NCBI RefSeq assembly: GCF_042660085.1
Contig: NZ_JBHSTI010000008.1
Location: forward strand, 2,265,604 to 2,297,603
Length of the DNA stretch: 32,000 bases
Source of the DNA: Longivirga aurantiaca
GTDB lineage: Bacteria > Actinomycetota > Actinomycetes > S36-B12 > CAIYMF01
Direction: 5' to 3'
Shown piece after piece: positions 1,424 to 21,920 of this stretch (the first letter of the stretch is position 1; the number at the start of each line of letters is the position of its first letter). The notes below the pieces were generated by a model that was given only the letters and a program-made list of their open reading frames with translations, was not told the origin of the DNA and searched no databases. The position numbers and the translations under genes are program-made.

Positions 1424-1840
1424 TCAGGAAGCCGGACCGTCCGCGAACTGTGCGAGGTAGCCGCGCAACGAGTCGTCGAGCGGGGCGGGCCGCATGCTCC
1501 CGTTGTCGACCTGCACGAGCACGGACCGCCCGACGGCGTAGACCGTGTCGCCCTCGGGCTCGCGGATCTCGTGGACGAACGTGTACGACGTCGTGCCGAT
1601 GCGCTCGACCCAGGTGTCGACGGCGATCGGCTCGTCCCGGTGGTTGAGCACCGCGCGGTAGTCGAGCTCGAGCCGGGCCACCACGGTGTCCTGCTGCGGA
1701 TGCCGGAGCCCGCCCCGCCACCGCAGGATGATCTCCATGCGGGCCTCCTGCAGGTACGTCGCGTAGACGACGTTGTTCACATGGCCGAGCCAGTCGAGGT
1801 CGGCCGTGCGGGTCTGCAGCAGGTAGCGGTGGCGGGCCAC
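1424..1840 (-). CDS. hotdog-fold acyl-CoA thioesterase (4HBT/YbgC-like)
   Basis: The motif DLDWLGHVNNVVYATYLQEAR is typical of 4HBT-type thioesterases. I prefer the GTG at 1840, 8 nt downstream of the ettA stop. The ORF-track start at 1879 would overlap ettA by 32 nt. Confidence 0.75.
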   Translation of the reverse strand: MARHRYLLQTRTADLDWLGHVNNVVYATYLQEARMEIILRWRGGLRHPQQDTVVARLELDYRAVLNHRDEPIAVDTWVERIGTTSYTFVHEIREPEGDTVYAVGRSVLVQVDNGSMRPAPLDDSLRGYLAQFADGPAS

Positions 1841-1847
1841 GGGCGCG

Positions 1848-3545
<1,698 letters not shown>

Positions 3546-3644
3546 GGGCCGACAGCCTACGGGAGCGGGAGGCCATGGCCTCGCCAGCCCACCTGGGCCG
3601 GAGGCCCGGTGGAGGCACCTCGTCCCCGCCGGGCCTCCGCCCGG

Positions 3645-4082
3645 TCAGGCGGCGGCGCCTGAGTGCTCGACCACGACGGTCTCGGGCTCGGCTACGCCGG
3701 ACGTACCGGCGACGTCCGCCGTCTGCGGGCCGCGTGGCGCCCGCTCGAACCGGGCTCGCCCCCACGACAGGTCGTGCCCGATGGCATCGGCCTCGACCTC
3801 GACCACGGTGTGGCTCTGCCCGTCCTTCTCGTACTCCCGCTGGCGGAGCCGGCCGACCACGAGCACGGGCTGGCCGAGCGCCAGCGAGTCGGCCACGTGC
3901 TCGGCGAGCCGTCGCCACGCCGAGACCTGGAGGTAGACCGTGCGGCTGCGCCACTGCCCCGACTTCTTGTCGAACCAGTCGTCGTTCACTGCCATCCGGA
4001 AGTTGGCCACGGCGCCGCCCGCGGTCGCCCGCAGGGTGACGTTGCTCGTGAGGTTGCCGGCCAGGGTGAGGGTGGAGCGCAC
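3645..4082 (-). CDS. single-stranded DNA-binding protein paralogue (SSBb-like, no acidic C-terminal tip)
   Basis: An OB-fold SSB pattern is present (LAGNLTSNVTLRATAGGAVANFRMAVNDDWFDKKSGQWRSRTVYLQVSAWRRLAEHV ... GQPVLVVGRLRQREYEKDG). The GTG at 4082 is chosen as start because the upstream part of the 232-aa ORF overlaps the tRNA gene and is Arg/Pro-rich. The C-terminus ends ...VVVEHSGAAA and lacks the D-D-x-P-F tail. Confidence 0.8.
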   Translation of the reverse strand: MRSTLTLAGNLTSNVTLRATAGGAVANFRMAVNDDWFDKKSGQWRSRTVYLQVSAWRRLAEHVADSLALGQPVLVVGRLRQREYEKDGQSHTVVEVEADAIGHDLSWGRARFERAPRGPQTADVAGTSGVAEPETVVVEHSGAAA

Positions 4083-4262
4083 GGTGACCTCCGTGTGCCG
4101 GGGCCGCCCGCTGCGACCCGCCTGCGGCCGACGATGGCCCCGCTCCTCCCCCGCCGCCGGCCGCGGGCGCGAGCGCCTGTGGACGACGCACCGCGCGGCC
4201 GTGCCTGGGGAACGACGACGTGTCCCGGGCACGGCACAATGTGTGCGGGCCGCAGGGCCCAG

Positions 4263-4335
4263 GCGCCCGTAGCTCAATGGATAGAGCAGCCGGTTTCTAC
4301 CCGGCTGGTTGGGGGTTCGAGTCCCTCCGGGCGCG
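4263..4335 (+). tRNA. tRNA-Arg (anticodon TCT)
   Basis: A manual cloverleaf fits. The acceptor stem pairs GCGCCCG with CGGGCGC. The D arm is GCTC-AATGGATA-GAGC. The anticodon arm is GCCGG-TTTCTAC-CCGGC, with TCT at positions 34-36. The T arm is GGGGG-TTCGAGT-CCCTC and the discriminator is G. CCA is not encoded. Confidence 0.9.
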
Positions 4336-4397
4336 CCGGCCACCGGTCAGCTGCCCTCACCGAGTGCTGACCCTCGGCGCTGCGCCCACCGCTCGGC

Positions 4398-5411
4398 CTA
4401 GACGGCGTCCGGGTGGGAGCTGGCCGGGTCCAGCCGCACCGCGCCTGCGCCGTGCCCGAGGCGTTCGCGAAGCACCGCGCGATCGCCGGTGGCCGGCTCG
4501 GTGGTCGCGAGGAAGTCGAGCAGGGCGCGGGCGAAGCGCTCCGGCTCGTCCTGGTGGGGGAAGTGCCCGGACTGCTCGAACAGCTCGAGCCGGCTGCCGG
4601 CGATCCACTCGTGCGCGGCGTACGCGTGCGACACCGGGATGAGGCCGTCCTTCGCGCCCCAGACGATCAGCGTCGGCCGCCCGGTGCTCAGGTAGAGGCG
4701 GTCACTGGCGCTGATCCGCTGGCCGCCCGGGTCGATGACGCTGCGCACGGTGTGGACGAACGCCGTGCGGGCCGGAAGGTCGGCGAGGGACGCGTAGCCG
4801 CGCGCCGCCTCGAGCACGGACGGCGACGGCCGCACGGGGGACCATCGGAGCAGGCGTCCGACCGACGCGGCGGCGACGGCGATCCGATGGTGCGCGATCA
4901 CGGGGAGCACGAGCTCCGCGCCCGGGAGCGACGCCGCGCGCAGCACCCAGCTGACCTCGCGCCCGAGCCCGCCGCTGGCGACGAGGCCGAGGCGCTCGGT
5001 GTACTCGGGGAACTGGTAGGCGAACTGCATCGCCACGCCGCCCCCCAGCGAGTGGCCGACGACCGTCGCACTCGAGTGCCCGAGCTTCTCGAGCAGATCT
5101 CGCAGCCCTGCGGCGAAGGCACCGAGCGAGTAGTCGCCCCGCGGCTTGTCAGACTCCCCGTGCCCCAGGAGATCCGGGGCGATCACGTGCGCCTCGCGCG
5201 ACAGCGCGGACATGACGGGATCCCACGTCGCGCTGCTGCTCGTGAGGCCGTGCACGAGGACCAGCACCGGAAGGTCCGGGTCGCCCGCGACCCTGTAGGC
5301 GGTGCGATGACCGTGCAGCAGGGTCTCGGTGCGCCGCACCTCGGAGCCACCGACGTCAGCCATGCCCCCACCCTGCCACCCCGGGATCGTCGATGAGACC
5401 CGGGCGGTCAC
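4398..5411 (-). CDS. alpha/beta-fold hydrolase
   Basis: Motifs present: HG oxyanion region (VLVLVHGLTSSSATW), nucleophile elbow GHSLGGG, and a C-terminal GHFPHQDEPERF histidine motif. The GTG at 5411 overlaps the upstream gene's TGA as GTGA, indicating translational coupling. The ATG at 5363 is an alternative start. Confidence 0.85.
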   Translation of the reverse strand: MTARVSSTIPGWQGGGMADVGGSEVRRTETLLHGHRTAYRVAGDPDLPVLVLVHGLTSSSATWDPVMSALSREAHVIAPDLLGHGESDKPRGDYSLGAFAAGLRDLLEKLGHSSATVVGHSLGGGVAMQFAYQFPEYTERLGLVASGGLGREVSWVLRAASLPGAELVLPVIAHHRIAVAAASVGRLLRWSPVRPSPSVLEAARGYASLADLPARTAFVHTVRSVIDPGGQRISASDRLYLSTGRPTLIVWGAKDGLIPVSHAYAAHEWIAGSRLELFEQSGHFPHQDEPERFARALLDFLATTEPATGDRAVLRERLGHGAGAVRLDPASSHPDAV

Positions 5412-7468
5412 ACCGCTGCGGGCACTCCCTCACGCGCCCGCAGCGCGCGCTCGCGCACCCGGGCGATGTCGGCGTCGGTGTAGGCGCCGTTCACACCGGA
5501 GATCACGGCGAGCTGCATGCCGTGCTTGAGGCCGAGCTTGTAGATCTCCTTGACCTTCTCCCACTCGATCTCGCGCCCGACGGTGAAGGTCTCGTAGCGG
5601 CCCTCGAGCGCCAGTACGACGGTCTCGGCCAGGCAGGCGTACGCGACCCCCGGGGGCAGTCCGATGCTGCGCATCCGGACGTCGCCGGGCAGCTCGATCT
5701 CGCCGGACTCGATCACGAGCACGTCGGGTCGCTTCGCGACGTCCTCGGCCGACAGGTCGAGCGGGCGTGCGACGTCGGTGATCACGCAGCCGGGCTTGAC
5801 CTTCATGATGTCGAGCACCCGCTTGCCCGCCCCCGAGGTCGCCGTGACCACGAGATCGACATCCGGCAGGTGCCTCTCGGCGGTCGCGGCGATGTGGATG
5901 GTCGCGCGGTGGTCGGAGCGCTCGATGTCGTGCTTGAGCGCCAGGAGCTTGGCCGACTCCGGCGAGACCAGCCACAGCTCATCGCACGACAGCGCGAGCA
6001 GTCGGGCGCAGACCGAGCCGATCGAGCCGGTCGCCCCCACCACCATGGCGTGTGCGAGGAGTCGACCGTCGGCGTCCCGCTCCACGAGGCCGAGCCGCAC
6101 CACTGCGTCGTGCGCGGCCCACAGCGCGCCCGCCGCGCTGTAGCTGTTGCCCGTCGTGACCGGCAGGGGTGCCTGTCGAGCGACGGTGACTCCGGCGTCG
6201 CCCACCACCTTGGTGAACGCGCCGAGACCCATCACCTGCGCCCCGTGCTTGCGGGCGGTCTCGGCGGCTGCGAGCAGCCGCCCGTAGGTGAACTCCGGGC
6301 TGTGGGCCATCAGCTCCCTCGGCGTGCCGCCGACCGAGATGAGCCAGCCCTCCGCCTCAGCCCCCGTGGGTGACTTGATCCCCGTGACGTGGCCGTAGGT
6401 GAACGGTGGGAGGTACGCCACCGCCTTCTCCACCACGTCGAGCACCACCGGCGGCGCATGCCGGACGACGGTCGCCAGCGGCTCGACGTTGCGGAAGAAG
6501 TCCTGGGACAGCGGATGGATCACGAAGGCGAAGCGACTCTTGCGACGAGGGCCGTTGGGTGAGAGAACCCGTGGCGCCAGGCCGGCGGCCACGATCCGGT
6601 CGAGCAGGTCATCCTCGCTCAGGCTGCCCTCCGCCGTCGACGTGGCGATCATCAGCGCCTCGAGGACGGCAGCCGTCACGGTGAACGAGAAGGGCTGCGG
6701 TGTCGAGTCGATGACCATGTCGACGTCGCGGGCCGCGAGGTCGGCCAGCCGGTGGTCGGACACGGCCGAGGTCACGACGGTCTTGCCCGCGAGGTCGGCG
6801 AGGCGGACGGCGGCCAGCTCGTCGAAGGTCGCCACGATGACATCGCAGCTGCGAGCGCTCCGGCGCGCCGCGTCGGTGCTCAAGTACTGCCCCGGCGCGA
6901 GCGCGCGGGACGCCAGGCCCTCGGGAACGGACCCGCCCAGGACGGCGAGCAGCGACGCCGCCGGCGCCAGGAGCGGCGTCGCCCTCAGGCGGCCGTCGAC
7001 GTCGAGCCGGCGCAGCAGGTCGGCGTAGACGATGTTGGACGTGTGCTCGCGCAGGACCTGCACCGCGCGCTCGTGATTCGCCCCGCCGAGCACCACGGTG
7101 CGGGCATTGGTGAAGTACCCGGGCATCTCGGCTTGGACATGACGCACCGCCCAGTCCTGCAGTACGCCGTGCAGCTGCCGGCCGTCCGTCACGGGCACGC
7201 CGCCCGCTGCACCGCGCAGGCGCTCCACGACCTCGGGTGCGCCGTCACGCCGTCCGCCGCCCCGGCCCTCCCAGATGCCGGTCACCGCGATGGCGGCCGC
7301 CTCCGGCGCCCACTTGGCGACCAGCGACTCGGCGGCCGCCTCGTCGCCGTCCGTGCCCAGGCGGACGATCCGGAACGCGCGATCCAGGAAGCGCACGTGC
7401 TGGTCGTAGTCCTCGTCGGACCCGGCGAGGCTCACCACCAGCACCAGCTGGACGGCCGGCTCGGTCAT
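5408..7468 (-). CDS. 686-aa two-domain protein: unrecognised N-terminal domain (about 310 aa) fused to an acyl-ACP reductase (AAR)-like NAD(P)-binding domain
   Basis: Start is the ATG at 7468 (MTEPAVQLVLVV); the upstream 42 codons of the ORF are Arg/Trp-rich. From RFAFVIHPLSQDFF onward the C-terminal half parallels my memory of cyanobacterial AAR. FGLIGHLTSLEQA corresponds to FAFVIHPLSQDFF. VVGATGDIGSAVCRWL corresponds to VVGATGSIGSVCARLL. FACFAEAMLLEFEG...GRNQITIEKMEAIGEASVRHGF corresponds to YACLAETVVLALEG...GREIEWEKVKEIYKLGLKHGM. Confidence 0.8.
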   Translation of the reverse strand: MTEPAVQLVLVVSLAGSDEDYDQHVRFLDRAFRIVRLGTDGDEAAAESLVAKWAPEAAAIAVTGIWEGRGGGRRDGAPEVVERLRGAAGGVPVTDGRQLHGVLQDWAVRHVQAEMPGYFTNARTVVLGGANHERAVQVLREHTSNIVYADLLRRLDVDGRLRATPLLAPAASLLAVLGGSVPEGLASRALAPGQYLSTDAARRSARSCDVIVATFDELAAVRLADLAGKTVVTSAVSDHRLADLAARDVDMVIDSTPQPFSFTVTAAVLEALMIATSTAEGSLSEDDLLDRIVAAGLAPRVLSPNGPRRKSRFAFVIHPLSQDFFRNVEPLATVVRHAPPVVLDVVEKAVAYLPPFTYGHVTGIKSPTGAEAEGWLISVGGTPRELMAHSPEFTYGRLLAAAETARKHGAQVMGLGAFTKVVGDAGVTVARQAPLPVTTGNSYSAAGALWAAHDAVVRLGLVERDADGRLLAHAMVVGATGSIGSVCARLLALSCDELWLVSPESAKLLALKHDIERSDHRATIHIAATAERHLPDVDLVVTATSGAGKRVLDIMKVKPGCVITDVARPLDLSAEDVAKRPDVLVIESGEIELPGDVRMRSIGLPPGVAYACLAETVVLALEGRYETFTVGREIEWEKVKEIYKLGLKHGMQLAVISGVNGAYTDADIARVRERALRAREGVPAAV

Positions 7469-7529
7469 CGTTGCGGCTCCTCGCTGCTCGGGGGTCGGTG
7501 CGGTGGACGGCGACGTCGAGGCTGGGCGC

Positions 7530-8627
7530 TCACACCATCGCCGCCGAGCCCACCTCGGGATGGTCCGCCATGAAGTCCAGGAGCGTGTCCGCATAGTCGG
7601 CGAACGCCGGGCACCGCACGCCCGTCCCCTGGAGGTCGCGCTCCGTGGCTGTGGTGGAGTACGTCGTACTCGAGGCGAAGTAGTCCAGGCCCTCGGCGGG
7701 GATCCCCAGGAGCCGCTCGAGACCGGGAATGCCGCCCAGCAGGGTGCGGGCGAGCCTCAGAGGCAGCGGCACCCAGACCACGCGCTTGCCCAGGTGGTGG
7801 GCGAACGTGTCGACGAGCGTGCGCACCGTGGGTGGGTGTGGGTCGGTCAACGCGTACGTGCGCCCCAGCGAGCAGTCCAGGACCGACAGCTCGTCCATCG
7901 CTCGGATCACGAAGTCGCGCGGCACCAGGGAGATGCGCACCCTGTCGGCGTCGCCGACTGCCGGCACCACAGCGATCGGACCCTGCCGCCGCAGGAAGGA
8001 CGCCAGGAAGTAAGGACCGTCGTACTTCTGGGTCGCGCCCGAGACGGAGTCGCCCACGACGATGCCCGGTCGGTAGATCGTGGCGGGGAGGCCTCCTGCC
8101 ATCGCCTTGCGCACGAGCATCTCGGCGTCGAACTTGGTCGCCTCGTAGTGATTGAGGAACGACTGGCCCTCATCGAGGGAGTCCTCGGCGAACACCCCGT
8201 CGTACCGGCCGCTCACGTAGCACGTGCTGACGTACTGGAGACGTGACAGACCGCGGAGCGCGGCGCAGACCTCGAGCACGCGGGCGGTGCCCTCCACGTT
8301 GACCCTGCGTGCCAGCTGCTCCCCGACGGTCAGGTCGTAGACGGCGGCCAGGTGCCATACCTCGCTGACGTCAGCGAGGCCTGCTCGGTCGTCCGCCCGG
8401 AGCCCGAGCCACGGCTCGGTGATGTCGCCCTCGACGACGACGACCCGGCCGGCCAGGTCCGGCTCGGACGCGACGAGCTCATCCACCCGGTGGCGGGCCG
8501 TGGTCAGATGCTGGGCCTGGACGACGCAGAGGGCGCGAGCGCCGTCGCGTCGCGCGAGCAGCCGCGGGAGCAGGGCGGAGGCCAGGAATCCCGGGAAACC
8601 GGTCACGAGGATGTCGGACATGCTCAT
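7530..8627 (-). CDS. SDR-type thioester reductase / fatty acyl-CoA reductase-like protein (NAD_binding_4 family)
   Basis: The N-terminal Rossmann motif ILVTGFPGFLAS follows directly after the ATG at 8627 (a second ATG lies at 8621). GAGAAGG lies just upstream. A YEATK catalytic Y-x3-K is present, and overall the protein resembles terminal reductase (R) domains. The ORF-track start at 8882 adds 85 Arg-rich codons and is rejected. Confidence 0.85.
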   Translation of the reverse strand: MSMSDILVTGFPGFLASALLPRLLARRDGARALCVVQAQHLTTARHRVDELVASEPDLAGRVVVVEGDITEPWLGLRADDRAGLADVSEVWHLAAVYDLTVGEQLARRVNVEGTARVLEVCAALRGLSRLQYVSTCYVSGRYDGVFAEDSLDEGQSFLNHYEATKFDAEMLVRKAMAGGLPATIYRPGIVVGDSVSGATQKYDGPYFLASFLRRQGPIAVVPAVGDADRVRISLVPRDFVIRAMDELSVLDCSLGRTYALTDPHPPTVRTLVDTFAHHLGKRVVWVPLPLRLARTLLGGIPGLERLLGIPAEGLDYFASSTTYSTTATERDLQGTGVRCPAFADYADTLLDFMADHPEVGSAAMV

Positions 8628-9071
8628 CGCCTTCTCACGGGCGCGGTCCCCCACCGAGAGCGGCAGGCCGGACCGTGGCCCGGCCTTCATTCTCACGCGG
8701 GTTCGACGCGGTGTCGCGCGTCCTGCCGACGGTGAGACCGACGACACCCGGCGATCAGCCATCTGCCTCCCCCCGACGTCGATGGCCCCGCTACGCACGG
8801 CTTCGCCCCGGCACCCGTCCCGTGCGGTTGCGGCGACCGGCCGGCTCTGGATACGGCGGAGAGCCTGCACTCGGCGCGGCACGGTGGCCCTTCCTGCCGA
8901 GGCGGTTCGCCTCGGAGCGCCGGGCCGGGTCGCGTCCCACCCCGTGGTCCGTGATTCCTCCTCGACCGGGGGCCCGCAGCCGCAGGCATCCGGGTGGAAC
9001 CCGGCCCCCGTACGGCCGCACCCAGGTGTCGCGAATCGATCGCGTCGACCCTGACGGAGCGGATCGAGGGG

Positions 9072-10298
9072 TCAGCCGACGACGCGGTCGCGGACGGCGA
9101 CGGCGAGGCCGGGGGCGAGCGGCAGCGGCGGCAGGAGCGCGATCTGCAGGGCGTGGTAGACGTCCGGACGGCCGGTCCAGGTGAGCGCCAGCGGCTCGTT
9201 GGCGGGCGACACCTCGTGCCGCCAGCCCCCGCCGCCCGCGAGGTCGGCGAAGTGCTCGACCGCGAAGTCCCAGACCTCGGCGTACCACTGCTCCCAGCGG
9301 GGGTCGCCGGTGGCGCGGTGCAGCGCCCACGCCGCGCCGATCGCCTCGCAGGCCACCCAGTGGAAGCGCTCGCGCACCACAGGGACACCGTCCTGGTCGG
9401 TCGTGTAGACGAAGCCGCCGCGCTCGACGTCCCAGGCGTCGGCCCGCGCCGTCTCCACCAGACCCACGGCCGCGTCGTCCAGCCAGGCCGGCGCCTCCGG
9501 GTCCGCAGCACGCAGGGCCAGGAGGAGGCGCGCCCACTCGAACGCGTGGCCCGGCGTCGCGCCGTACGGGCGGAAGGGGTGGCGCGGCTGGTCGAGGTTG
9601 TAGTCGGGCAGCGGTTGCCACGCGGTGTCGAAGTGCTCCGGGATGCGCCAGGAGCTCTCCCGCGCTGCCGTCATCATCCGCACGCACACGTCGGTCGCGC
9701 GCCGGCGCCACTGCGGGTCGCCGGTCGCGTCGGACGCGGCGAGGAACACCTCCACCAGGTGCATCGAGGCGTTGCCGCCGCGGTACTCCTCGCGGTCGCC
9801 CCAGGCGACGTCGTACGACTCGTACGGCATGCGCATCTCGTCGTCCCAGAAGTGCTCGAGCACCACTGCGAGCGCCTCGTCGAGCAGCTCGCGCGCTCCG
9901 GGACGGCCCGCGACGAGCGCGCTCGAGGCGGCCAGGACGACGAACGCGTGGCCGTACGCCTCCTTGCGCCCCTGGCCCCGGGCATCCGCGTCGGCGAACC
10001 ATCCGCCGTGCACCTCGTCGCGGTACGTCGTGCGCAGCGCCTCGAGACCGCGGTCGACGGCCTCGGCGCACCCGGCGCGACCCCGAAGCGCGCCGAGGGC
10101 GAGGCAGTGGATCATCCGGCAGCCGATCCACAGCGGTCGCCCCTTTGCGGGGTCGAGGCTGCCGTCGTCGGCACGCCACCCGAACCCGCCGTCGGACCGT
10201 TCGGATCCGAGCGCCCAGTCGAGCAGGCGGTCGGCCTCACGGTCGAGCCAGGCGACGTGCTCGGCACCCTCCGGCGTCGCGACGTCGAACAGGCTCAT
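9072..10298 (-). CDS. AGE-family epimerase/isomerase (N-acylglucosamine 2-epimerase / aldose-ketose isomerase-like, alpha6/alpha6 barrel)
   Basis: 408 aa with repeated W/H-rich helical motifs typical of the AGE fold (GGFGW, KEAYGHAFVVLAASSA, GGNASMHLVEVFLAA, ATPGHAFEWARLLL, RFHWVACEAIGAAWAL). Confidence 0.8.
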   Translation of the reverse strand: MSLFDVATPEGAEHVAWLDREADRLLDWALGSERSDGGFGWRADDGSLDPAKGRPLWIGCRMIHCLALGALRGRAGCAEAVDRGLEALRTTYRDEVHGGWFADADARGQGRKEAYGHAFVVLAASSALVAGRPGARELLDEALAVVLEHFWDDEMRMPYESYDVAWGDREEYRGGNASMHLVEVFLAASDATGDPQWRRRATDVCVRMMTAARESSWRIPEHFDTAWQPLPDYNLDQPRHPFRPYGATPGHAFEWARLLLALRAADPEAPAWLDDAAVGLVETARADAWDVERGGFVYTTDQDGVPVVRERFHWVACEAIGAAWALHRATGDPRWEQWYAEVWDFAVEHFADLAGGGGWRHEVSPANEPLALTWTGRPDVYHALQIALLPPLPLAPGLAVAVRDRVVG

Positions 10299-10722
10299 GC
10301 GGACCTCCGGCGCAGTGCGCCGGCCGGTCCGACGCGATCCGGGCCATCCTGCCCGAGCAGGACCGTCAGGGCGTGGCGCTCATCGTGGTCGGTGGCGGCG
10401 GATCGGGCACCGAGCCCATCGGCTCCAGGAGCAGCGCGACGACGCATGCCGCGAGGATCGGTGGCACGACCACGCGCGCCAGATCACGATCGACATTCAT
10501 GTGAGCAACCCCCGTTGGCGGCCGTGGGAGGATGGCCTCTCACCGTCATCATCGGCAGATGGCGCGCGGCCCTGTTGCCGTGCACGGTCGGTATCTGGTC
10601 CAGAACGCCGGTTCAGGATCTGCTGCGACTCCCGACGTTCATCCCGACGTCAGCCCGGGTACACCTGCGTCGGGCCAGATGGGTCAGCCGGGCGACGCCG
10701 CGTCGCACGTGAGGGAGTGACG

Positions 10723-11883
10723 ATGCAGGCGAGCGCTGCCACCGACCGCCCACGGGTGGTGATCGTCGACGTGCACGCGTCCGACTCGTTCCGCGAGTTC
10801 GCCGCAGCGCTGCGACGCCGTGGCGTCGACGTCATGCACGTCCGCCCCGCCTACCAGGGGCGGGGACGGTCGGTGAAGCGCGCGATCGACCGCCTCGCCG
10901 GGCCGATCGTCCCGCTGCACGGGCCGATCACCGGGGACGACCCGGCGACCGTCGCCCTGCGCCGGGAGATGCTGTCGGCGCCGACCGTGGACCTGCACGC
11001 GATCGAACCCGTCCTCGCAGACCTGGCGACGACTCCCGAGTGGCAGGCCAACCACGCTCTCCGCAGGCTGCGCCCCGGCGTCGAGCTCGGCGACGTCCTC
11101 GACAAGTGGGAGGTCGGACAGCTGGCCGTGGCCGCAGGCGTGCGGATCCCCGAGGCGAGCACCGACCTGACGACCGACCGGTTCCCCGTGGTCGTGAAGG
11201 GCCGCCTGGGCGCCGGCGGGATCTGGGTCCGGGTCGTGAACGACGCGGACGAGCTGCGGGCTGCCGTCGCCGACCTCGGAGGCGACGCGGCCGGCCTCTA
11301 CCTCGAGCGCTACCACCACACCGAGACCGGCCTCGGAACCGCCGGCGTGGCCCGCGACGGCGAGGTGCTGGTCTGCGGGGCGTTCGAGCGGCAGCCCAGC
11401 CCCGACGAGCCGCTCGCGCCCGCGGTCGCGATCAGGGCCTACCGCCACACTGCGGCGATCGAGGCGAGCGAGCGGCTCATTGGCGCTCTCGGCTACACGG
11501 GCATCTTCTGCCTCAACTTCGTCCCCGACGACGACGGCAGCCCGCTGCTGATCGACGTCAACCTGCGGGCGTTCGGGGCCTGGGTGACGCTCGACGAGCT
11601 GGGAGTCCCGATCCTCGACACCTACCTCGAGCTGATCGGTGCCGGCGCCGCTGCGCCCCCGATGAGGCTCGACGAGCAGCGCTGGGCACCCGTCGCGCGG
11701 ATCGGCACCGGGGCGAACGGAACGCTGGGCACGGTGTGGAGGGTGACCCGCGGCACCGGTGCGCTCGTGTGGCGCCGCCGACGCACGCTCGGATGGGGCT
11801 GGATGACCGGTACCGAGGTGCGCGTCGTGCAGACCGGGCTGACGGGCGCCGTCGGCGTCCTGCGAGGTCGGCGCCGTCGCTGA
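10723..11883 (+). CDS. ATP-grasp domain protein (386 aa), substrate unknown
   Basis: The ATG at 10723 is preceded by GAGGGAG with a 5-nt spacer. An ATP-grasp core is present (FPVVVKGRLGAGGIWVRVVNDADELRAAV ... GLYLERYH ... GYTGIFCLNFVPDDDGSPLLIDVNLRAFG). The ORF-track start at 9625 overlaps the AGE gene antisense and is rejected. Confidence 0.8.
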   Translation: MQASAATDRPRVVIVDVHASDSFREFAAALRRRGVDVMHVRPAYQGRGRSVKRAIDRLAGPIVPLHGPITGDDPATVALRREMLSAPTVDLHAIEPVLADLATTPEWQANHALRRLRPGVELGDVLDKWEVGQLAVAAGVRIPEASTDLTTDRFPVVVKGRLGAGGIWVRVVNDADELRAAVADLGGDAAGLYLERYHHTETGLGTAGVARDGEVLVCGAFERQPSPDEPLAPAVAIRAYRHTAAIEASERLIGALGYTGIFCLNFVPDDDGSPLLIDVNLRAFGAWVTLDELGVPILDTYLELIGAGAAAPPMRLDEQRWAPVARIGTGANGTLGTVWRVTRGTGALVWRRRRTLGWGWMTGTEVRVVQTGLTGAVGVLRGRRRR

Positions 11884-11904
11884 CCGCGAACGGGCCGGGA
11901 CGCG

Positions 11905-15471: not shown

Positions 15472-15948
15472 ATGACCCACATCGGAGTCACCGTGGACGG
15501 GATCCTGCGGCACGGTGACGTGGAGCCTCGACGGCTCCTCGTGCACTGGCTGCGCGAGGACCTCGGCCTCGTCGGCACACCGGTCGGATGCGACACCTCG
15601 AACTGCGGTGCCTGCACCGTCCTGATCGACGGACGCAGCGCCAAGTCGTGCAGCGTGCTCGCCGTCCAGGTGGACGGCCAGAGCGTCACCACGATCCAGG
15701 GCCTCGCCGACGGCGACGAGTGGCACCCGGTGCAGAAGGCGTTCAAGGAGTGCCACGCCCTCCAGTGCGGCTTCTGCACCCCCGGCATGGTCCTGGCCTC
15801 GGTCGACCTGCTCTCGGAGAACCCGGACCCGAGCGAGGACGAGATCCGGGCCGGCCTCGAGGGCAACCTCTGCCGCTGCACCGGCTATCACAACATCGTG
15901 AAGGCGGTCGCGACCGCTGCGGCCGAGATGAAGGGGGCGTCGGCATGA
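15472..15948 (+). CDS. (2Fe-2S)-binding small subunit of a form-II CoxSLM-type molybdenum hydroxylase
   Basis: Cysteine motifs are [18 protein letters not shown] and CRCTGY. GGGAGA lies upstream of the ATG at 15472. The stop overlaps the next start as ATGA. Confidence 0.9.
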   Translation: MTHIGVTVDGILRHGDVEPRRLLVHWLREDLGLVGTPVGCDTSNCGACTVLIDGRSAKSCSVLAVQVDGQSVTTIQGLADGDEWHPVQKAFKECHALQCGFCTPGMVLASVDLLSENPDPSEDEIRAGLEGNLCRCTGYHNIVKAVATAAAEMKGASA

Positions 15949-18323
15949 CCGAGACCGTCGAGCGCACGGACGGCCCTGCGATCGGTCGTTCCGACCGGCG
16001 CAAGGAGGACGCCCGGCTCCTGACCGGCCGCACCAACTGGACCGACAACATCCAGCTGCCCGGCACGCTGCACATGGCCACGCTGCGCAGCTCGGTCGCG
16101 CACGCGAGGATCACCCGGATCGACACCAGCGCCGCCACGGCGGCAGAGGGCGTCTTCGCCGTCTACACGGGCGCGGACTTCCCCGACCTCCTCGGCACCA
16201 CCTGCGTGTGGCCGGTCACCGACGACATCAACACCGCGACGATGCCGGCGATCTGCTCGGACACGGTCAACTTCGCGGGCGACGTCGTCGCCGTCGTCCT
16301 CGCCACCGAGCAGTCGCTCGCGGTCGACGCGCTCGACCTCATCGACGTCGACTACGAGCCGCTGCCGGCAGTGGTCGACATGGAGAGCGCCCTCGCGTCC
16401 GGCTCCCCGAACGTCCACGAGGACTTCGGCACGAACCAGTGCTTCACCATGAACGTGCCCTGGGGCGACTACGCCGCGGCGAAGGCCAAGGCCGACGTCG
16501 TCGTCAGCCGCCGGTTCATCAACCAGCGCCTCATCCCGAACCCGATGGAGCCTCGCTCGGTCGTCGCTGCGCCGATGGGGATGAGCGACGAGATCACCAT
16601 CTGGTCCTCGACCCAGATCCCCCACGTGCTTCGGGTCCTGCTGGCGCTGCTGACGGGCATCCCGGAGAACAACATCCGCGTCGTCGCACCCGACGTCGGC
16701 GGCGGCTTCGGCGCCAAGCTGCAGATCAACCGCGAGGAGGTGCTGTCGATCGTCCTGGCCAAGAAGCTGGGTCGCCCGGTCAAGTGGACCGAAGGTCGCA
16801 GCGAGCACTTCGTGTCGACGCACCACGGCCGCGACCAGATCCAGGACATCGAGATCGCCGCGACCAGCGACGGCACCATCCTGGGGCTGAAGGTCGACCT
16901 CAAGGCCGACATGGGCGCCTACCTGCAGATCATCACGCCCGGCACGCCGCTCCTCGGCATGTTCATGTACTCGGGCATCTACAAGATGGACGCGCTCGAC
17001 TTCACCTGCACCGGCGTCTACACCAACAAGACGCCGACCGACGCCTACCGCGGCGCCGGACGCCCGGAGGCGACGTACGCCATCGAGCGCATCGTCGACG
17101 AGCTCGCGAACGAGCTCGGCATGGAGCCGCTCGAGCTGCGCAAGAAGAACTGGATCAAGCACGAGGAGTTCCCCTACACGCAGATCGCGGGCCTCACGTA
17201 CGACACGGGCAACTACGAGGCCGCGACCGCGCGCGCGGTGGAGCTCTTCGGGTACGACGAGCTCCGCGCCGAGCAGGCCGCACGCCGCGCGAGCGGCGAC
17301 AAGGTTCAGCTCGGCATCGGCATCTCGACGTTCACCGAGATGTGCGGCCTCGCGCCGTCCCGCACCCTGGGCGCGCTCAAGTACGCCGCAGGCGGATGGG
17401 AGCACTGCACGATCCGTGTGACGCCGACCGGCAAGGTGGAGCTCGTCACCGGCACGTCGCCGCACGGGCAGGGCCACGAGACTGCGTGGAGCCAGATCGC
17501 CAGCGACATCATCGGCATCCCTGTCGAGGACATCGAGGTCGTGCACGGCGACACCGGCAGGGCGCCGTACGGCATGGACACGTACGGCTCGCGCTCGCTG
17601 GCCGTCGGTGGCCAGGCCATCAAGGCGGCTGGCGAGAGGGTCGTGGAGAAGGCACGGGTCATGGCCGCGCACCAGCTCGAGGTGAGCCCGGACGACATCG
17701 AGTTCAGCAACGGCACGTTCTCGGTGAAGGGCGACCCTGAGAAGAGCACGACCATCCAGGCCGTCGCGTGGGCCGCGTTCGCGGCGCACAACATCCCCGA
17801 CGGCATGGAGCCGATGCTGTCCGGCGAGTCGACCGTCGACCCGCAGGACTTCTCCTACCCCCACGGCACGCACCTCGCGGCCATGGAGGTCGACACGGAG
17901 ACCGGCATGGTCACGCTGCGCAAGTACGTCGCCGTCGACGACTGCGGCGTGCAGATCAACCCGCTCATCGTCGAGGGCCAGGTGCACGGCGGACTCGCCC
18001 AGGGCATCGCCCAGGCGATGTACGAGGGTGCCCTCTACGACGCTGACGGCAACCTGCTGACCGGGTCGATGGGCGACTACCTCCTTCCGAGCGCGGCCGA
18101 CCTGCCGTCGTTCATCACCGATCGGACGATCACTCCGTCCACGACACATCCCTTGGGGACCAAGGGGATCGGCGAGGCCGGCGCGATCGCGTCGACCCCG
18201 GCGATCATCAACGGCGTGGTCGACGCGCTGCGCCCCCTCGGCGTCAACGACGTCTTCATGCCCGCCAGCCCGCAGAACGTGTGGCGCGCCATCCAGGCGG
18301 CGCAGAACGGAGGTGCCGCATGA
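15945..18323 (+). CDS. molybdopterin-binding large subunit, form-II CoxL-like (xanthine dehydrogenase family)
   Basis: 792 aa. The active-site loop reads AYRGAGR (nt 17043-17063), which is the published form-II signature rather than the CODH signature AYXCSFR. ATGA overlaps occur at both ends (15945-15948 and 18320-18323). Confidence 0.9.
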   Translation: MTETVERTDGPAIGRSDRRKEDARLLTGRTNWTDNIQLPGTLHMATLRSSVAHARITRIDTSAATAAEGVFAVYTGADFPDLLGTTCVWPVTDDINTATMPAICSDTVNFAGDVVAVVLATEQSLAVDALDLIDVDYEPLPAVVDMESALASGSPNVHEDFGTNQCFTMNVPWGDYAAAKAKADVVVSRRFINQRLIPNPMEPRSVVAAPMGMSDEITIWSSTQIPHVLRVLLALLTGIPENNIRVVAPDVGGGFGAKLQINREEVLSIVLAKKLGRPVKWTEGRSEHFVSTHHGRDQIQDIEIAATSDGTILGLKVDLKADMGAYLQIITPGTPLLGMFMYSGIYKMDALDFTCTGVYTNKTPTDAYRGAGRPEATYAIERIVDELANELGMEPLELRKKNWIKHEEFPYTQIAGLTYDTGNYEAATARAVELFGYDELRAEQAARRASGDKVQLGIGISTFTEMCGLAPSRTLGALKYAAGGWEHCTIRVTPTGKVELVTGTSPHGQGHETAWSQIASDIIGIPVEDIEVVHGDTGRAPYGMDTYGSRSLAVGGQAIKAAGERVVEKARVMAAHQLEVSPDDIEFSNGTFSVKGDPEKSTTIQAVAWAAFAAHNIPDGMEPMLSGESTVDPQDFSYPHGTHLAAMEVDTETGMVTLRKYVAVDDCGVQINPLIVEGQVHGGLAQGIAQAMYEGALYDADGNLLTGSMGDYLLPSAADLPSFITDRTITPSTTHPLGTKGIGEAGAIASTPAIINGVVDALRPLGVNDVFMPASPQNVWRAIQAAQNGGAA

Positions 18324-19174
18324 TCCCCTCGGCGTTCGACTACGTGAAGGCGTCCACGGTCGACGAGGCCGTCGCGGCTCTCGCCGAGGCAGGCGAGGAC
18401 GCGAAGGTGCTCGGCGGCGGCCAGTCGCTGCTGCCGGTGCTGCGCCTGCGTCTCAACGCACCGACCGTGCTCGTCGATGTCAGCGGCGTCGGCGAGATGC
18501 GGAGCATCTCGGACGAGGGCGGCTCGCTGCTCATCGGTGCGGCGGTCACGACGTACGAGGTCCTGCACGACGCGGCGGTCAACGCCTCGGTGCCCCTGCT
18601 GTCGCAGACCGCGGGGCTCGTGGCCGACCCGGCCATCCGTCACCGCGGGACCTTCGGCGGCTCGTGCACCCACGCCGACCCGGCAGGCGACCTGCCCACG
18701 GTGGCGCGGGCGCTCGACGCCGAGTTCGTGATCGCGGGGCCGGGCGGCCGTCGCACGGTGGCGGCGGCGGACTTCTTCGTCGACTACTTCACCACGGCCG
18801 TGGGACCGGACGAGGTCCTCGTGGCCGTCCGCGTGCCGAAGCTCGACGGGTGGGGCAGCCACTACGAGAAGTTCCACCGCACCGCGCAGGCGTGGGCCAT
18901 CGTCGGTGTCGCAGCGGCGGTGAAGGTCGAGGGCGGCAGCATCACCGGCGCCCGCGTCGCGCTCACCAACGTCGGACCGACGCCGGTGCGCGCTGCCTCG
19001 GTCGAGGCGGCCCTCATCGGAGGCCCTGCCACCGTCGAGGCGATCACTGCCGCCGCGCAGAGCGCGGCCGACGGCACGTCGCCCACCAGCGACACCCACG
19101 CCGCGGCCGACTTCCGCACCCACCTGGCGAAGGTCCTCACGGGCCGAGCCGTCGCCAAGGCCGCGGGCCTCTAG
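18320..19174 (+). CDS. FAD-binding medium subunit (CoxM-like) of the form-II enzyme
   Basis: The start MIPSAFDYVKASTVDEAVAAL is followed by the GGGQSLLPVLRLRL FAD-binding motif and RHRGTFGGS. GGAGG lies upstream of the ATG at 18320. Confidence 0.9.
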   Translation: MIPSAFDYVKASTVDEAVAALAEAGEDAKVLGGGQSLLPVLRLRLNAPTVLVDVSGVGEMRSISDEGGSLLIGAAVTTYEVLHDAAVNASVPLLSQTAGLVADPAIRHRGTFGGSCTHADPAGDLPTVARALDAEFVIAGPGGRRTVAAADFFVDYFTTAVGPDEVLVAVRVPKLDGWGSHYEKFHRTAQAWAIVGVAAAVKVEGGSITGARVALTNVGPTPVRAASVEAALIGGPATVEAITAAAQSAADGTSPTSDTHAAADFRTHLAKVLTGRAVAKAAGL

Positions 19175-19188
19175 CGCTCCACCAGCCC

Positions 19189-19230
19189 CAGCAGAACGGC
19201 CCCCGTCGCACGACGGGGGCCGTTCTGCTG
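19189..19230. terminator. bidirectional hairpin terminator between convergent genes
   Basis: CAGCAGAACGGCCCCCGTCG..CGACGGGGGCCGTTCTGCTG is a near-perfect 19-20 bp stem followed by TT. It sits between the medium-subunit stop (19174) and the modC stop (19246). Confidence 0.7.
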
Positions 19231-19245
19231 TTCCTCGAGGGTCGG

Positions 19246-20307
19246 TCAGGCGGGGTAGACGTCGAGCTCGGTGGCCTTGGCCGAGAGCCACAGCTCGGTG
19301 CCGCGCGTGAGCCGGAGGTCGGCCACCGCCCCCGGTGTGACGTCGACGATGACCGTCGGGGCGCCGCTGACGGTGACGCGGACGCGGTCGCCGATGGGCT
19401 CGACGCCGTCGACGACACCGCGCCACACGTTGCGCGCGCTGCCCTCCGGCTCGGCGGCGTGCAGGCTGATCGCGCTGGGTCGTACGGCGACCAGCACGTG
19501 GCCGTGGTGATCGGCGTCGTCCGCCACGTGCAGCGCGCCGCCGCCGTCCAGGGCGACCTCCCCGCCCGCGGCCGTGCCGGGCAGCAGGTTGATGCCGAGC
19601 AGCCGTGCGACGTAGCGCGTCGCCGGGCGCCTGGCCACCTCCCACGGCTCCCCCTGCTGCGTGACCGAGCCGCCCTCCAGCACCACGATCCGGTCCGCCA
19701 GGACGAGGGCGTCGAGCGGGTCGTGCGTGACCAGCAGCGTGGGACCCCCGACGTCGGTCAGGTGCTCGCGCAACCAGGAGCGGACGTCGAGCCGCGTGCC
19801 GGCGTCGAGCGCCGCGAGCGGTTCGTCGAGCAGCATCGCCACCGGGTCGGCCGCGAGCGCACGACCGAGCGCCACCCGCTGTGCCTGCCCGCCCGACAGC
19901 GTCGCCGGCTTGCGGTGCGCGAGGTCGTCGAGCCCGAGCCTCGTCACCCACACCCCCGCGCGCCGCCGGGATTCGGCCTTGGACACGCCGGACGAGCGCA
20001 GCCCGAAGGCGAGGTTGTCGAGCACCGAGAGGTGAGGGAAGAGCCGATAATCCTGGAACACCAGGCCGATCCGGCGCTCCCCCGGTGCGACGAGCACGTC
20101 GGCCGCGGGATGGTCCACGACCACGGTGCCGAGCGACAGCCGCCCGCCGGTCATCGGCGTGAGCCCGGCGACCGCGCGCAGCAGGGTCGACTTCCCGGCA
20201 CCGTTCGGGCCGAGCACCGCCACCACCTCGCCGGCAGCCACCTCGATCTCGACGTCGAGGCGGAAGGCCCCCTGCTCGACGACGACCTGGCCCGACAGCC
20301 CGCTCAT
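19246..20307 (-). CDS. modC: molybdate ABC transporter ATP-binding protein
   Basis: Walker A is GPNGAGKST, the signature is LSGGQAQRVALGRAL and Walker B is LLDEPLAALD. A C-terminal TOBE/Mop-like domain is present. The ATG at 20307 overlaps the modB stop as ATGA. It lies in an operon with modA and modB. Confidence 0.9.
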   Translation of the reverse strand: MSGLSGQVVVEQGAFRLDVEIEVAAGEVVAVLGPNGAGKSTLLRAVAGLTPMTGGRLSLGTVVVDHPAADVLVAPGERRIGLVFQDYRLFPHLSVLDNLAFGLRSSGVSKAESRRRAGVWVTRLGLDDLAHRKPATLSGGQAQRVALGRALAADPVAMLLDEPLAALDAGTRLDVRSWLREHLTDVGGPTLLVTHDPLDALVLADRIVVLEGGSVTQQGEPWEVARRPATRYVARLLGINLLPGTAAGGEVALDGGGALHVADDADHHGHVLVAVRPSAISLHAAEPEGSARNVWRGVVDGVEPIGDRVRVTVSGAPTVIVDVTPGAVADLRLTRGTELWLSAKATELDVYPA

Positions 20308-21116
20308 GCCGATGCCCCGGTCCCCAGCCACCGGTCGCGGAGCCCCACGAGCACGAGCACCGAGACCGCGAGCAGCACGAGGCTCAGCACGACCGCCTCG
20401 GAAGGGTCGCCCTCGAGACCGGTGTAGACGGCGAGCGGCAGCGTCTGCGTCACGCCCTCGAGGTTGCCGGCGAAGGTGATGGTCGCTCCGAACTCGCCCA
20501 GTGCGCGGGCGAAGGTCAGCACCGCACCCGCGACGAGCGACGGCGCCACGAGCGGCACGGTGACCCGGCGGAACACCTCGACGCGGCTCGCGCCCAGGGT
20601 GACCGCAGCCTCCTCGAGCTTCCCGTCCAGGCCGCGCAGCGCCCCCTCGACCGTGATGACGAGGAACGGCATGGCCACGAACACCTGCGCAACGACCACC
20701 CCCGGCGTGGTGAACGGCAGCGTGATCCCGGTGAGTGCTTCGAGCGGCTGACCGACGATGCCCCGGCGCCCGAACGCCAGGAGCAGTGCGATGCCGCCCA
20801 CGACGGGCGGGAGCACGAGCGGCACCGTGACGAGCGCGCGCAGGAAGCGGCGGCCCGGGACTGTCGAGCGCGCGAGCAGCCAGGCCAGCGGTACGCCGAG
20901 CAGCACGGCCACGACGGTCGAGGCCAGCCCGGTCACGAGCGAGAGCCGCAGCGCCGCCAGCGACGTCGGCGAGGTGAGCACCTCCCAGAACCGGCTCCAG
21001 GGCGCGCGGACGAGCAGCCCGAGCAGGGGCAGCGCGAGGAACAGGATGGCGAGCCCGGCGGGCACGAGGACGGGCCAGGGGGGTGCGGTCGCCGACCGCC
21101 CGCGGCGGGCGGTCAC
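20304..21116 (-). CDS. modB: molybdate ABC transporter permease
   Basis: 270 aa and polytopic. An EAA-like loop is present (EEAAVTLGASRVEVFRRVTVPL). The GTG at 21116 overlaps the modA stop as GTGA. The ORF-track version (510 aa) reads through the modA region in another frame and is rejected. Confidence 0.9.
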   Translation of the reverse strand: MTARRGRSATAPPWPVLVPAGLAILFLALPLLGLLVRAPWSRFWEVLTSPTSLAALRLSLVTGLASTVVAVLLGVPLAWLLARSTVPGRRFLRALVTVPLVLPPVVGGIALLLAFGRRGIVGQPLEALTGITLPFTTPGVVVAQVFVAMPFLVITVEGALRGLDGKLEEAAVTLGASRVEVFRRVTVPLVAPSLVAGAVLTFARALGEFGATITFAGNLEGVTQTLPLAVYTGLEGDPSEAVVLSLVLLAVSVLVLVGLRDRWLGTGASA

Positions 21117-21889
21117 GGGGCGCCGAACCCGGCGTCGGCGAGCACCTTCTGCGCCTCGGGGCCCAGCAGGTATGCCGCGAACGCCTGTGCTGTCACGGGA
21201 TTCGCGCTGCCCGACATCGCGGCGATCGGGTAGCTCGTCGTCACGTTCTGGTCGACGGGGATGTCGATGCCGACGACGGCGCTGCCCGCGGCCTTCACGT
21301 CGGTCACGTAGACGATGCCTGCGTCGACCTCGCCGAGCTGCACCTTGGAGAGCACCGACTTCACGTCGACCTCGCGCGTCACGGGCGTCACCGTGAGGTT
21401 GTTCTGCTCGAAGAGCTTGTCGGCCGCGATGCCGCACGGCACGTCGGCCGCGCACACGGCGACCTTCACCGCGGGGTCGGCGAGGTCCGCCAGCGAGGTG
21501 ACTGTCGTGATCGGGTCGGCCGGGGCAGCGATGGCCATCGTGTTGACGGCGAACACCGTCGAGCCGGGCGCGAGCCCGGCGTCGACCACGGTGTCCATCG
21601 TCTTCTGGCTCGCGCTGGCGAACACGTCGGCAGGCGCCTTCTCGGCGATCTGGGTCGCGAGTCCGCTGCTCGGCCCGAAGCTGAACGTGATCGTCGTTCC
21701 CGGGTTCGCCGCCTCGAACTGCTCGCCGATCGTCACGAACGCCTCCTTCAGCGAGGCTGCGGCGAACACGGTGATCGGTCCTGTCACGCCGGTCGCCGAG
21801 CCGGACGGCGCTTCTCCAGCAGCGGTCGAGCCGCATCCGGCCACAGCGAGCGTCGCGGCTGCGAGGGCTACGAGCAGGCGCGTGCGCAC
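21113..21889 (-). CDS. modA: molybdate ABC transporter substrate-binding lipoprotein
   Basis: A lipobox is present (LAVAGC). The motif ITVFAAASLKEAF...FSFGPSSGLATQI...ADVFASAS is typical of ModA. GTG start at 21889 with GAAGGG upstream. Confidence 0.9.
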   Translation of the reverse strand: MRTRLLVALAAATLAVAGCGSTAAGEAPSGSATGVTGPITVFAAASLKEAFVTIGEQFEAANPGTTITFSFGPSSGLATQIAEKAPADVFASASQKTMDTVVDAGLAPGSTVFAVNTMAIAAPADPITTVTSLADLADPAVKVAVCAADVPCGIAADKLFEQNNLTVTPVTREVDVKSVLSKVQLGEVDAGIVYVTDVKAAGSAVVGIDIPVDQNVTTSYPIAAMSGSANPVTAQAFAAYLLGPEAQKVLADAGFGAP

Positions 21890-21920
21890 GGTGCGCCCTT
21901 CGTCGTCCGCGGGGTGCGCA

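Follow-up and report, generated by a model that had tools for sequence, protein, structure and literature searches.

An acyl-ACP-reductase-like fusion protein and its reductase partner in Longivirga aurantiaca as a candidate two-step fatty acyl reductase

Three genes and their products

We analysed a 32,000-nucleotide stretch of DNA (the window) from the soil actinobacterium Longivirga aurantiaca, whose genome has a G+C content of ~72%, and concentrated on three genes at positions 4398–8627. They encode an extended short-chain dehydrogenase/reductase (SDR) of the NAD_binding_4 family, a fusion protein whose C-terminal domain resembles cyanobacterial acyl-acyl carrier protein (ACP) reductase (AAR), and an alpha/beta hydrolase. 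Sequence and gene context suggest that the SDR and the fusion may together form a two-step fatty acyl reductase, with the hydrolase as a probable accessory. An initial annotation had described the three genes as co-directional, which is correct; all lie on the minus strand, a detail absent from that annotation. Coding frames were assigned by third-codon-position G+C content (GC3), given the high G+C content of the genome, and GC3 values of 0.87–0.92 for the SDR, fusion and hydrolase identify them as genuine coding frames. The features of the unit are:

8627–7530, minus strand: stand-alone extended SDR of the NAD_binding_4 family, 365 aa (open reading frame (ORF) map, PF07993)
7529–7469, minus strand: spacer of 61 nt from the SDR stop to the fusion start (direct sequence reading)
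7468–5408, minus strand: fusion protein, 686 aa (ORF map)
7468–6539, minus strand: N-terminal domain of the fusion, residues 1–310, an orphan domain with two predicted alpha/beta lobes
6538–5408, minus strand: C-terminal domain of the fusion, residues 311–686, matching the AAR/PigE-N/TAD superfamily
5363–4398, minus strand: alpha/beta hydrolase, 321 aa from the probable start ATG at 5363 (PF00561, N-termini of orthologues)

On sequence evidence, it is established that the C-terminal domain of the fusion belongs to the AAR/PigE-N/TAD thioester-reductase superfamily (COG5322-type) and carries all of the catalytic motifs. The best match of residues 312–673 was the PigE model NF053554 (E = 9.2e-53, 180 bits, model positions 1–355 of 837), and residues 354–652 matched the AAR model TIGR04058 (E = 1.1e-19, 71 bits). 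Sequence searches of the PDB with this domain gave PigE (4ppm, E = 1.1e-28), AAR (6jzq, E = 1.8e-15) and, weakly, a TAD domain (9e4x, E = 0.002), and its profile scored 99.9% to PigE and 99.6% to AAR in hhalign. Because both curated cut-offs (850 bits for NF053554 and 449.7 for TIGR04058) were missed by a wide margin, the fusion is classed as neither a PigE nor an AAR equivalog, and the class III aminotransferase domain of PigE was not found in it. The earlier assignment of the C-terminal ~375 aa to AAR therefore holds at the level of the superfamily but not of the enzyme itself, the closest characterised relative being PigE-N (180 versus 71 bits).

The F-x-x-I-H-x-x-S block, Rossmann motif and A-C-x-A-E cysteine segment on which that assignment had relied are all present, as RFAFVIHPLS, VVGATGSIGS and YACLAET. 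In the HMMER alignment, GATGSIG (residues 478–484, positions 6037–6017) is set on the GATGDIG of AAR and Cys612 (positions 5635–5633) falls on Cys294 of AAR. Cys612 is invariant in 17 orthologues and retained in 62 of 66 distant fusions, and the TTG motif (residues 438–440, positions 6157–6149) is invariant among orthologues; together, this motif and the catalytic Cys define a superfamily that includes TAD domains (bioRxiv 10.1101/2024.10.28.620694). AAR, with Cys294 and GATGDIG, is an experimentally supported thioester-to-aldehyde reductase (PMC7089970), and for PigE, the whole protein was shown to be active, bioinformatics placing this activity in its N-terminal domain (PMC8341465). We propose that the C-terminal domain of the fusion is likewise an acyl-thioester-to-aldehyde reductase. 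Glutamyl-tRNA reductase, shikimate dehydrogenase and saccharopine dehydrogenase were rejected as identities, their matches being local to the Rossmann fold (E ~1e-3 to 1e-6, versus 1e-19 to 1e-53 for AAR and PigE). With shikimate dehydrogenase and glutamyl-tRNA reductase models (E ~1e-3) scoring far below AAR and the aligned Cys in place, the AAR-like call of the initial annotation survives. A plasmid search returned proteobacterial PigE-type proteins only and no copy of the fusion architecture.

The N-terminal 310 residues of the fusion had no match in Pfam, NCBIfam or, by profile search, the PDB. When 1.84 billion cluster representatives were searched exhaustively, only 343 relatives of this domain emerged; nearly all share the ~690-aa architecture, at identities as low as 24%, or are fragments of such proteins. 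An AlphaFold2 (AF2) model based on a diverse alignment predicts two alpha/beta lobes (predicted local distance difference test (pLDDT) 82.5, predicted template modelling score (pTM) 0.80), which Foldseek matched to periplasmic-binding-protein type I folds (E = 6e-7, TM ~0.35), the carmabin TAD domain 9e4u (TMq 0.48) and AAR 6jzy (TMq 0.39). When the N-terminal profile was aligned to the C-terminal profile of the same fusion with hhalign (E = 0.002, 178 collinear columns), PVTDG paired with PVTTGNSY and ARTVVLGG with AMVVGATG, and an Ala stood at the catalytic Cys position; the score was equalled by 1 of 30 block shuffles and by no column shuffle. The domain has neither a catalytic Cys nor GxGxxG. 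It is plausible but unproven that it represents a degenerate internal duplicate of the reductase module; because its profile gave no significant alignment to individual AAR or PigE sequences (E = 0.13–0.35), the case comes from the N-versus-C profile alignment and Foldseek instead.

The SDR matched PF07993 (NAD_binding_4) well above the gathering score (160.8 versus 20.1 bits, E = 4.6e-47), with the catalytic Tyr-x3-Lys present as YEATK (residues 161–165), and the hydrolase matched PF00561 (119.5 versus 25.8 bits, E = 2.5e-34), so both partner families had been named correctly. Against PRK07201, which is the AcrB profile (PMC11948995), the SDR scored 248 bits over model positions 3–353 of 657 only, that is, the NAD_binding_4 half; it fell below the equivalog cut-off of 549 bits and does not have the full two-domain layout (NAD_binding_4 plus Acr1-like SDR). 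It also stayed under the cut-off of the thioester reductase domain model TIGR01746 (126.3 versus 213.35 bits, E = 1.6e-36), and its closest PDB match by sequence was the reductase (R) domain of MxaA (4u7w, E = 3.4e-27). In M. tuberculosis FCR1, the Acr1-like, acyl-CoA-reducing part is the C-terminal one (PMC3522743). Since the SDR matches the N-terminal half of AcrB and not the Acr1-like acyl-CoA-reducing half, reduction of fatty aldehydes to alcohols is its more likely role.

The hydrolase has a GHSLGG nucleophile elbow (residues 103–108 in the 321-aa form), reached none of the NCBIfam equivalog cut-offs, and has a polyhydroxybutyrate (PHB) depolymerase and a lipase as its nearest PDB relatives (E ~1e-20). 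A GTG at 5411 overlaps the TGA of the fusion as GTGA and would give 337 aa, and on this overlap the initial annotation had based translational coupling. The start is, however, probably the ATG at 5363, which is preceded by a Shine–Dalgarno-like GGGTGGGGG and aligns with the N-termini of four orthologues (the first in-frame Met in an open upstream frame, called as ATG in L168 and L170), whose first Met sits ~10–16 residues ahead of an LHGH/IHGH motif. With this start, a spacer of 44 nt follows the fusion, and coupling is unsupported.

The conserved unit and its neighbours

A scan using one genome per species returned more than 568 relatives of the fusion, the best 80 of which include Nocardioides, Phycicoccus, Gordonia, Mycobacterium metagenome-assembled genomes, Nitriliruptoraceae, Jiangellales, Nanopelagicales and Ilumatobacteraceae. 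Across actinobacterial-type relatives, identity was 73–93% for the C-terminal domain, 41–79% for the N-terminal domain and 59–83% for the SDR. Starting from distant members, a further scan yielded 80 metagenomic loci of 27–75% G+C; named distant relatives belong to the Burkholderiales (Inhella, Rubrivivax) and Desulfobacterales. Neighbours were counted by systematic tblastn, with families confirmed by Pfam, in 83 actinobacterial-type and 83 distant loci that are not phylogenetically independent. The neighbour range was 3.5 kb, and 56 of the 83 distant loci have at least 1.3 kb upstream of the fusion. Counts for Fe-alcohol dehydrogenase (Fe-ADH), wax ester synthase/diacylglycerol acyltransferase (WS/DGAT) and other families were:

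NAD_binding_4 SDR directly upstream of the fusion, same strand: 64/83 actinobacterial-type, 7/83 distant
Classical SDR within 3.5 kb of the fusion: 8/83 actinobacterial-type, 1/83 distant
Fe-ADH directly upstream of the fusion: 0/83 actinobacterial-type, 32/83 distant
WS/DGAT within 3.5 kb of the fusion: 13/83 actinobacterial-type (10 adjacent, same strand), 10/83 distant
DGAT2-like acyltransferase near the fusion: 0/83 actinobacterial-type, 2/83 distant
Aldehyde dehydrogenase near the fusion: 8/83 actinobacterial-type, 1/83 distant
Patatin near the fusion: 8/83 actinobacterial-type, 0/83 distant
Orthologue of the window hydrolase near the fusion: 5/83 actinobacterial-type, 0/83 distant

The conserved unit is the SDR–fusion pair (64/83), not the trio (5/83), and the three-gene operon of the initial annotation thus fails as a conserved arrangement, the more so as its gene order varies. 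The hydrolase lies 3' of the fusion in the window and L078 and 5' of the SDR in L039, L168 and L170; in Longivirga it occupies the place where other genomes have WS/DGAT, patatin or an SDR, and it is probably a lineage-specific accessory that hydrolyses lipid esters or transfers acyl groups. The loci most closely related to that of the window are L168 and L170. In L170 (79% identical), the SDR gene (5802–6966) is apparently split by a frameshift, with tblastn pieces at 5865–6761 and 6766–6963, and represents either a pseudogene or an assembly error. L168 encodes at 1677–2939 (minus strand) a 420-aa PF12902 'Ferritin-like' protein, which has no window counterpart and does not belong to the aldehyde-deformylating oxygenase (ADO) family; its gene lies on the opposite strand ~1.8 kb upstream of the hydrolase–SDR–fusion block and ~2.9 kb from the SDR.

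Across lineages, a second oxidoreductase consistently accompanies the fusion, but its family varies (NAD_binding_4, Fe-ADH or classical SDR). Same-strand triads take the form Fe-ADH–fusion–WS/DGAT (L135, L136 and L139), NAD_binding_4–fusion–WS/DGAT (L027, L043, L047, L050, L056 and L070) and WS/DGAT–fusion–SDR (L055, L061, L076 and L079), and in L019, L020, L023, L029 and L041 a patatin gene directly follows the fusion on the same strand. The window ORFs scanned contained no ferritin-like or ADO family, in agreement with the reported absence of a deformylating oxygenase, and none recurs as a neighbour among the 166 related loci. The context of the distant members P0199, P0243, P0248 and P0131 was uninformative.

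Several variants of the fusion itself were observed among the distant loci. Tandem ~690-aa fusions occur in low-GC metagenomic loci (L090, 2911–7058; L098, 1–3881; L100, 3256–7406), where the first copy has the catalytic Cys (YACLAET) and the second a Gly instead (YAGLAET). Single Cys-less fusions are found in L089, L101, L081 and L088, the last two with a DGAT2/PlsC-like acyltransferase directly after. Fusions of L128, L129, L135, L136, L139, L144 and L151 bear long Ala/Lys/Pro-rich, histone H1-like C-terminal tails; the named members of this clade are Burkholderiales, and the Longivirga fusion has no such tail. The WS/DGAT adjoining the fusion in L135 (7421–9079) carries a tail of the same type. 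We take these tails to resemble those on PHB-granule and lipid-droplet proteins.

A proposed two-step reduction and its alternatives

We read the SDR–fusion pair as a two-gene, two-step fatty acyl reductase that would convert acyl-thioesters to aldehydes and then to alcohols destined for ester lipids, an interpretation that we hold with even confidence. In the first step, the AAR/PigE-like C-terminal module would move the acyl chain from a thioester (an acyl-ACP or an acyl-CoA) to Cys612, and reduction of the acyl-enzyme with NAD(P)H would release a fatty aldehyde. In the second step, the NAD_binding_4 SDR encoded upstream would convert this aldehyde to a fatty alcohol, which would enter ester lipids, most probably wax esters through WS/DGAT, a neighbour in many other genomes. 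The N-terminal 310 residues of the fusion may serve as a non-catalytic module in scaffolding or ligand binding, and the hydrolase as an accessory ester- or thioester-handling enzyme added to the pair in Longivirga and a few relatives. Substrates (ACP or CoA), direction, cofactor and products, like the roles of the N-terminal domain and hydrolase, are those suggested by sequence and gene context.

Gene context carries much of the argument. Fe-ADH cannot reduce thioesters, so the simplest role for the partner is aldehyde-to-alcohol reduction. With Fe-ADH or a classical SDR replacing the partner elsewhere, and with the window SDR corresponding to the non-Acr1 half of AcrB, the earlier view that the locus encodes two different thioester reductases is probably wrong. 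Recurrent WS/DGAT neighbours suggest that wax esters are a main fate of the alcohol, and the fatty aldehyde, alcohol or wax-type pathway guessed at in the initial annotation gains support from WS/DGAT genes within 3.5 kb in 13/83 and 10/83 loci and from the same-strand triads. The reductases FarA, AcrB and FcrA are all missing from at least 42% of WS/DGAT-bearing bacteria (PMC11948995), which leaves room for another.

Several observations weigh against the two-step interpretation. WS/DGAT adjacency is a minority pattern (~12–16% of loci, which are not phylogenetically independent), and no WS/DGAT was found in the scanned ORFs of the 32-kb window. The identity of 73–93% in the C-terminal domain across actinobacterial classes is unusually high for a storage-lipid enzyme and might mean a more central role. 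Arg189 and Arg193, which bind the NADPH phosphate in AAR (PMC7089970), correspond to Pro503 and Lys507 of the fusion in the HMMER alignment, so the cofactor and its binding mode may differ from those of AAR. The full-length AF2 model of the fusion was poor (pLDDT 61.6), with a catalytic half too poor for use. NAD_binding_4 and R-domain proteins are themselves capable of four-electron thioester reductions, so the division of labour between SDR and fusion is one that we infer. More generally, all roles proposed for members of the fusion family are read from sequence and gene context.

A broader proposal, which we put forward only tentatively, is that the fusion family and its interchangeable aldehyde reductase constitute an unrecognised, phylogenetically wide, AAR-type and ADO-independent class of fatty acyl reductase, found in Actinomycetota, Burkholderiales and Desulfobacterales. 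It would supply wax-ester alcohols in many WS/DGAT bacteria without FarA, AcrB or FcrA, and the N-terminal half of the fusion would be an ancient, inactivated duplicate forming an intramolecular pseudo-dimer.

The pair might instead make an aldehyde or alcohol for another product, such as alkyl ether lipids, long-chain diol or amine lipids, or a cell-envelope component, on which the hydrolase and acyltransferases would act. This would suit the ~85% of loci without an adjacent WS/DGAT, the very high conservation across actinobacterial orders and the DGAT2/PlsC-like acyltransferases that follow the Cys-less variants in L081 and L088, and FarA/FcrA homologues do feed ether lipid synthesis in some bacteria (PMC11948995). 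Ether-lipid genes (AGPS, PlsA/R), aminotransferases and glycosyltransferases are, however, not recurrent beside the pair, and WS/DGAT is the commonest lipid-assembly enzyme among the neighbours, leading us to regard a different product as unlikely.

Operation in the catabolic direction is distinctly unlikely. Here, the partner would oxidise long-chain alcohols, arising for example when wax esters or alkanes are degraded, to give aldehydes; the AAR-like module would act as an acylating aldehyde dehydrogenase forming acyl-CoA or acyl-ACP, and the hydrolase or patatin would free the alcohol from esters. Thioester–aldehyde redox chemistry is near equilibrium and acylating aldehyde dehydrogenases use both directions, and neighbouring Fe-ADH, aldehyde dehydrogenase, patatin and alpha/beta hydrolase genes fit ester hydrolysis followed by alcohol oxidation equally well. 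Yet both characterised relatives, AAR and PigE-N, are reductive (PMC7089970, PMC8341465), WS/DGAT, which is biosynthetic, occurs in same-strand triads with the pair, and alkane hydroxylase or beta-oxidation genes are not recurrent among the neighbours.

We give little credence to a fixed trio as first described, in which two independent thioester reductases would work with a dedicated hydrolase that is translationally coupled to the fusion. Its genes are co-directional and closely spaced, the SDR is most similar to the thioester-reducing terminal R domains of nonribosomal peptide synthetases and polyketide synthases (NRPS/PKS; 4u7w; TIGR01746, E = 1.6e-36), and, although the genes have been rearranged, the closest relatives still have a hydrolase orthologue not far from the pair. 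Against this, the hydrolase accompanies the pair in only 5/83 loci (upstream in three, downstream in two) and has a likely start at ATG 5363 after a 44-nt gap, Fe-ADH or a classical SDR substitutes for the SDR in other lineages, and neither a carrier protein nor a second acyl-activating enzyme is encoded nearby.

Finally, it is very improbable that the C-terminal module is non-reductive, with Cys612 serving a different reaction (TAD domains, for instance, have been proposed to catalyse amidation), or that it acts on a non-lipid thioester: the superfamily does include TAD domains, with chemistry that is unresolved (bioRxiv 10.1101/2024.10.28.620694), TAD matches appear weakly in the PDB sequence search (9e4x, E = 0.002) and Foldseek, and the NADPH-binding arginines of AAR are not conserved, but similarity to PigE-N and AAR is far above that to TAD, an NRPS/PKS context is absent and the lipid-enzyme neighbourhood is consistent across phyla.

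Surroundings of the unit and relation to known systems

The three-gene unit is bounded by a non-coding region and a tRNA gene:

8628–9071, minus strand: upstream non-coding region, 444 nt (ORF map, Pfam)
4263–4337, plus strand: tRNA-Arg(TCT), convergent, the downstream limit of the unit (ARAGORN; Rfam RF00005, 68.8 bits)

The promoter presumably lies in the 444-nt region upstream of the SDR, where short hairpins were seen and no sigma-70-type consensus or Rfam match was found; promoter, terminator and Rfam scans across the locus found the tRNA as the sole element. The gene beyond this region encodes, by Pfam, an N-acetylglucosamine (GlcNAc) 2-epimerase-family protein unrelated to the unit. Coding is ambiguous at 10380–11900, where a plus-strand frame (9625–11883) overlaps the well-supported minus-strand epimerase gene; ATP-grasp matches there are weak (E ~3e-4), and the minus-strand ORF at 10684–11448 has no family match.

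Downstream, a minus-strand block (1424–4262) encodes a single-stranded-DNA-binding (SSB)-family protein, an ABC-F ATPase (two ABC domains plus ABC_tran_Xtn) and a 4HBT-fold thioesterase. The long 'SSB-like' ORF at 4343–3645 (minus strand) runs over the tRNA-Arg(TCT) gene, so the true start of the SSB-family gene must lie at or below 4262. The 4HBT-fold thioesterase could in principle use acyl-thioesters; it stands beside the fusion in no other locus. A patatin-like phospholipase gene is found at 24767–25732 (plus strand), ~16 kb away from the SDR–fusion pair. The interval 15588–31410 holds two paralogous molybdoenzyme sets of the xanthine-dehydrogenase/aldehyde-oxidase family, with MoCoBD large subunits at 15588–18323 and 27727–30462 and an FAD_binding_5 subunit each, interspersed with XdhC (two copies), MoaE, a MobA-like gene and a molybdate-type ABC transporter (SBP_bac_11, permease and an ATPase with TOBE).

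Among characterised systems, PigE shares with the C-terminal domain of the fusion the TTG motif, Rossmann loop and catalytic Cys (Cys296 in PigE), and reportedly converts a thioester into an aldehyde, which it hands to the fused partner domain, the reductase domain being assigned by bioinformatics (PMC8341465). In PigE, however, the reductase is N-terminal to a class III aminotransferase and belongs to a pigment gene cluster (the 2-methyl-3-n-amyl-pyrrole (MAP) pathway of prodigiosin), whereas here it is C-terminal to an orphan alpha/beta domain, is paired with a putative alcohol-forming reductase and occurs in a lipid context. AAR (PDB 6jzq and 6jzu) has the same fold family and catalytic layout, from which a ping-pong mechanism (acyl transfer to Cys, then hydride transfer) would be expected. 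The fusion differs in having no ADO partner, an extra 310-aa N-terminal module and Pro503/Lys507 in place of Arg189/Arg193, and comes from Actinomycetota and other non-photosynthetic phyla, whereas AAR is cyanobacterial.

AcrB, Maqu_2507 and M. tuberculosis FCR1 (Rv3391) resemble the pair in the proposed conversion of acyl-thioester to alcohol for wax esters and in a genomic link to WS/DGAT. Their C-terminal half is an Acr1-like classical SDR that reduces acyl-CoA (PMC3522743). In the proposed system, a separate AAR-superfamily protein would take this role, giving two polypeptides and, for the first step, a different catalyst acting through a covalent Cys. R domains of NRPS/PKS (MxaA, 4u7w) are, like the SDR, extended SDRs with a catalytic Tyr-x3-Lys, but they are tethered to carrier proteins in megasynthases, whereas the SDR is free-standing, with no carrier protein or synthetase nearby. 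The HMG-CoA-reductase-like FcrA offers a parallel as an unexpected family serving as the alcohol source for WS/DGAT and found largely by gene context (PMC11948995); its fold and mechanism are unrelated to those of the fusion, and it was ruled out as an explanation for the fusion.

Literature searches found no publication on this fusion architecture or a characterised orthologue, consistent with the earlier statement that no actinobacterial pathway of this kind has been described. The 686-aa fusion is 100% identical to an NCBI entry named 'dehydrogenase', and homologues are annotated only as 'dehydrogenase', 'predicted amino acid dehydrogenase' or 'hypothetical protein'. That fatty acyl reductases feed wax synthesis is known; new would be the combination of an AAR-superfamily catalyst, an orphan N-terminal module and an apparently interchangeable aldehyde reductase. 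The two-step Acr1 route is known as well, although to our knowledge no enzyme has yet been identified as its fatty aldehyde reductase.

Fatty alcohols and wax esters are bacterial storage and stress lipids that are tied to mycobacterial dormancy and are industrial targets. Recognised direct routes from acyl-CoA to fatty alcohol in bacteria are those of FarA, AcrB and the recently found FcrA (PMC11948995). If the two-step interpretation is correct, an AAR-superfamily enzyme with a dedicated aldehyde reductase would fill part of the gap left by these three, a candidate would be named for the unidentified aldehyde reductase, and a soluble aldehyde or alcohol module would be at hand for engineering. 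AAR chemistry would then extend beyond cyanobacterial alkane synthesis.

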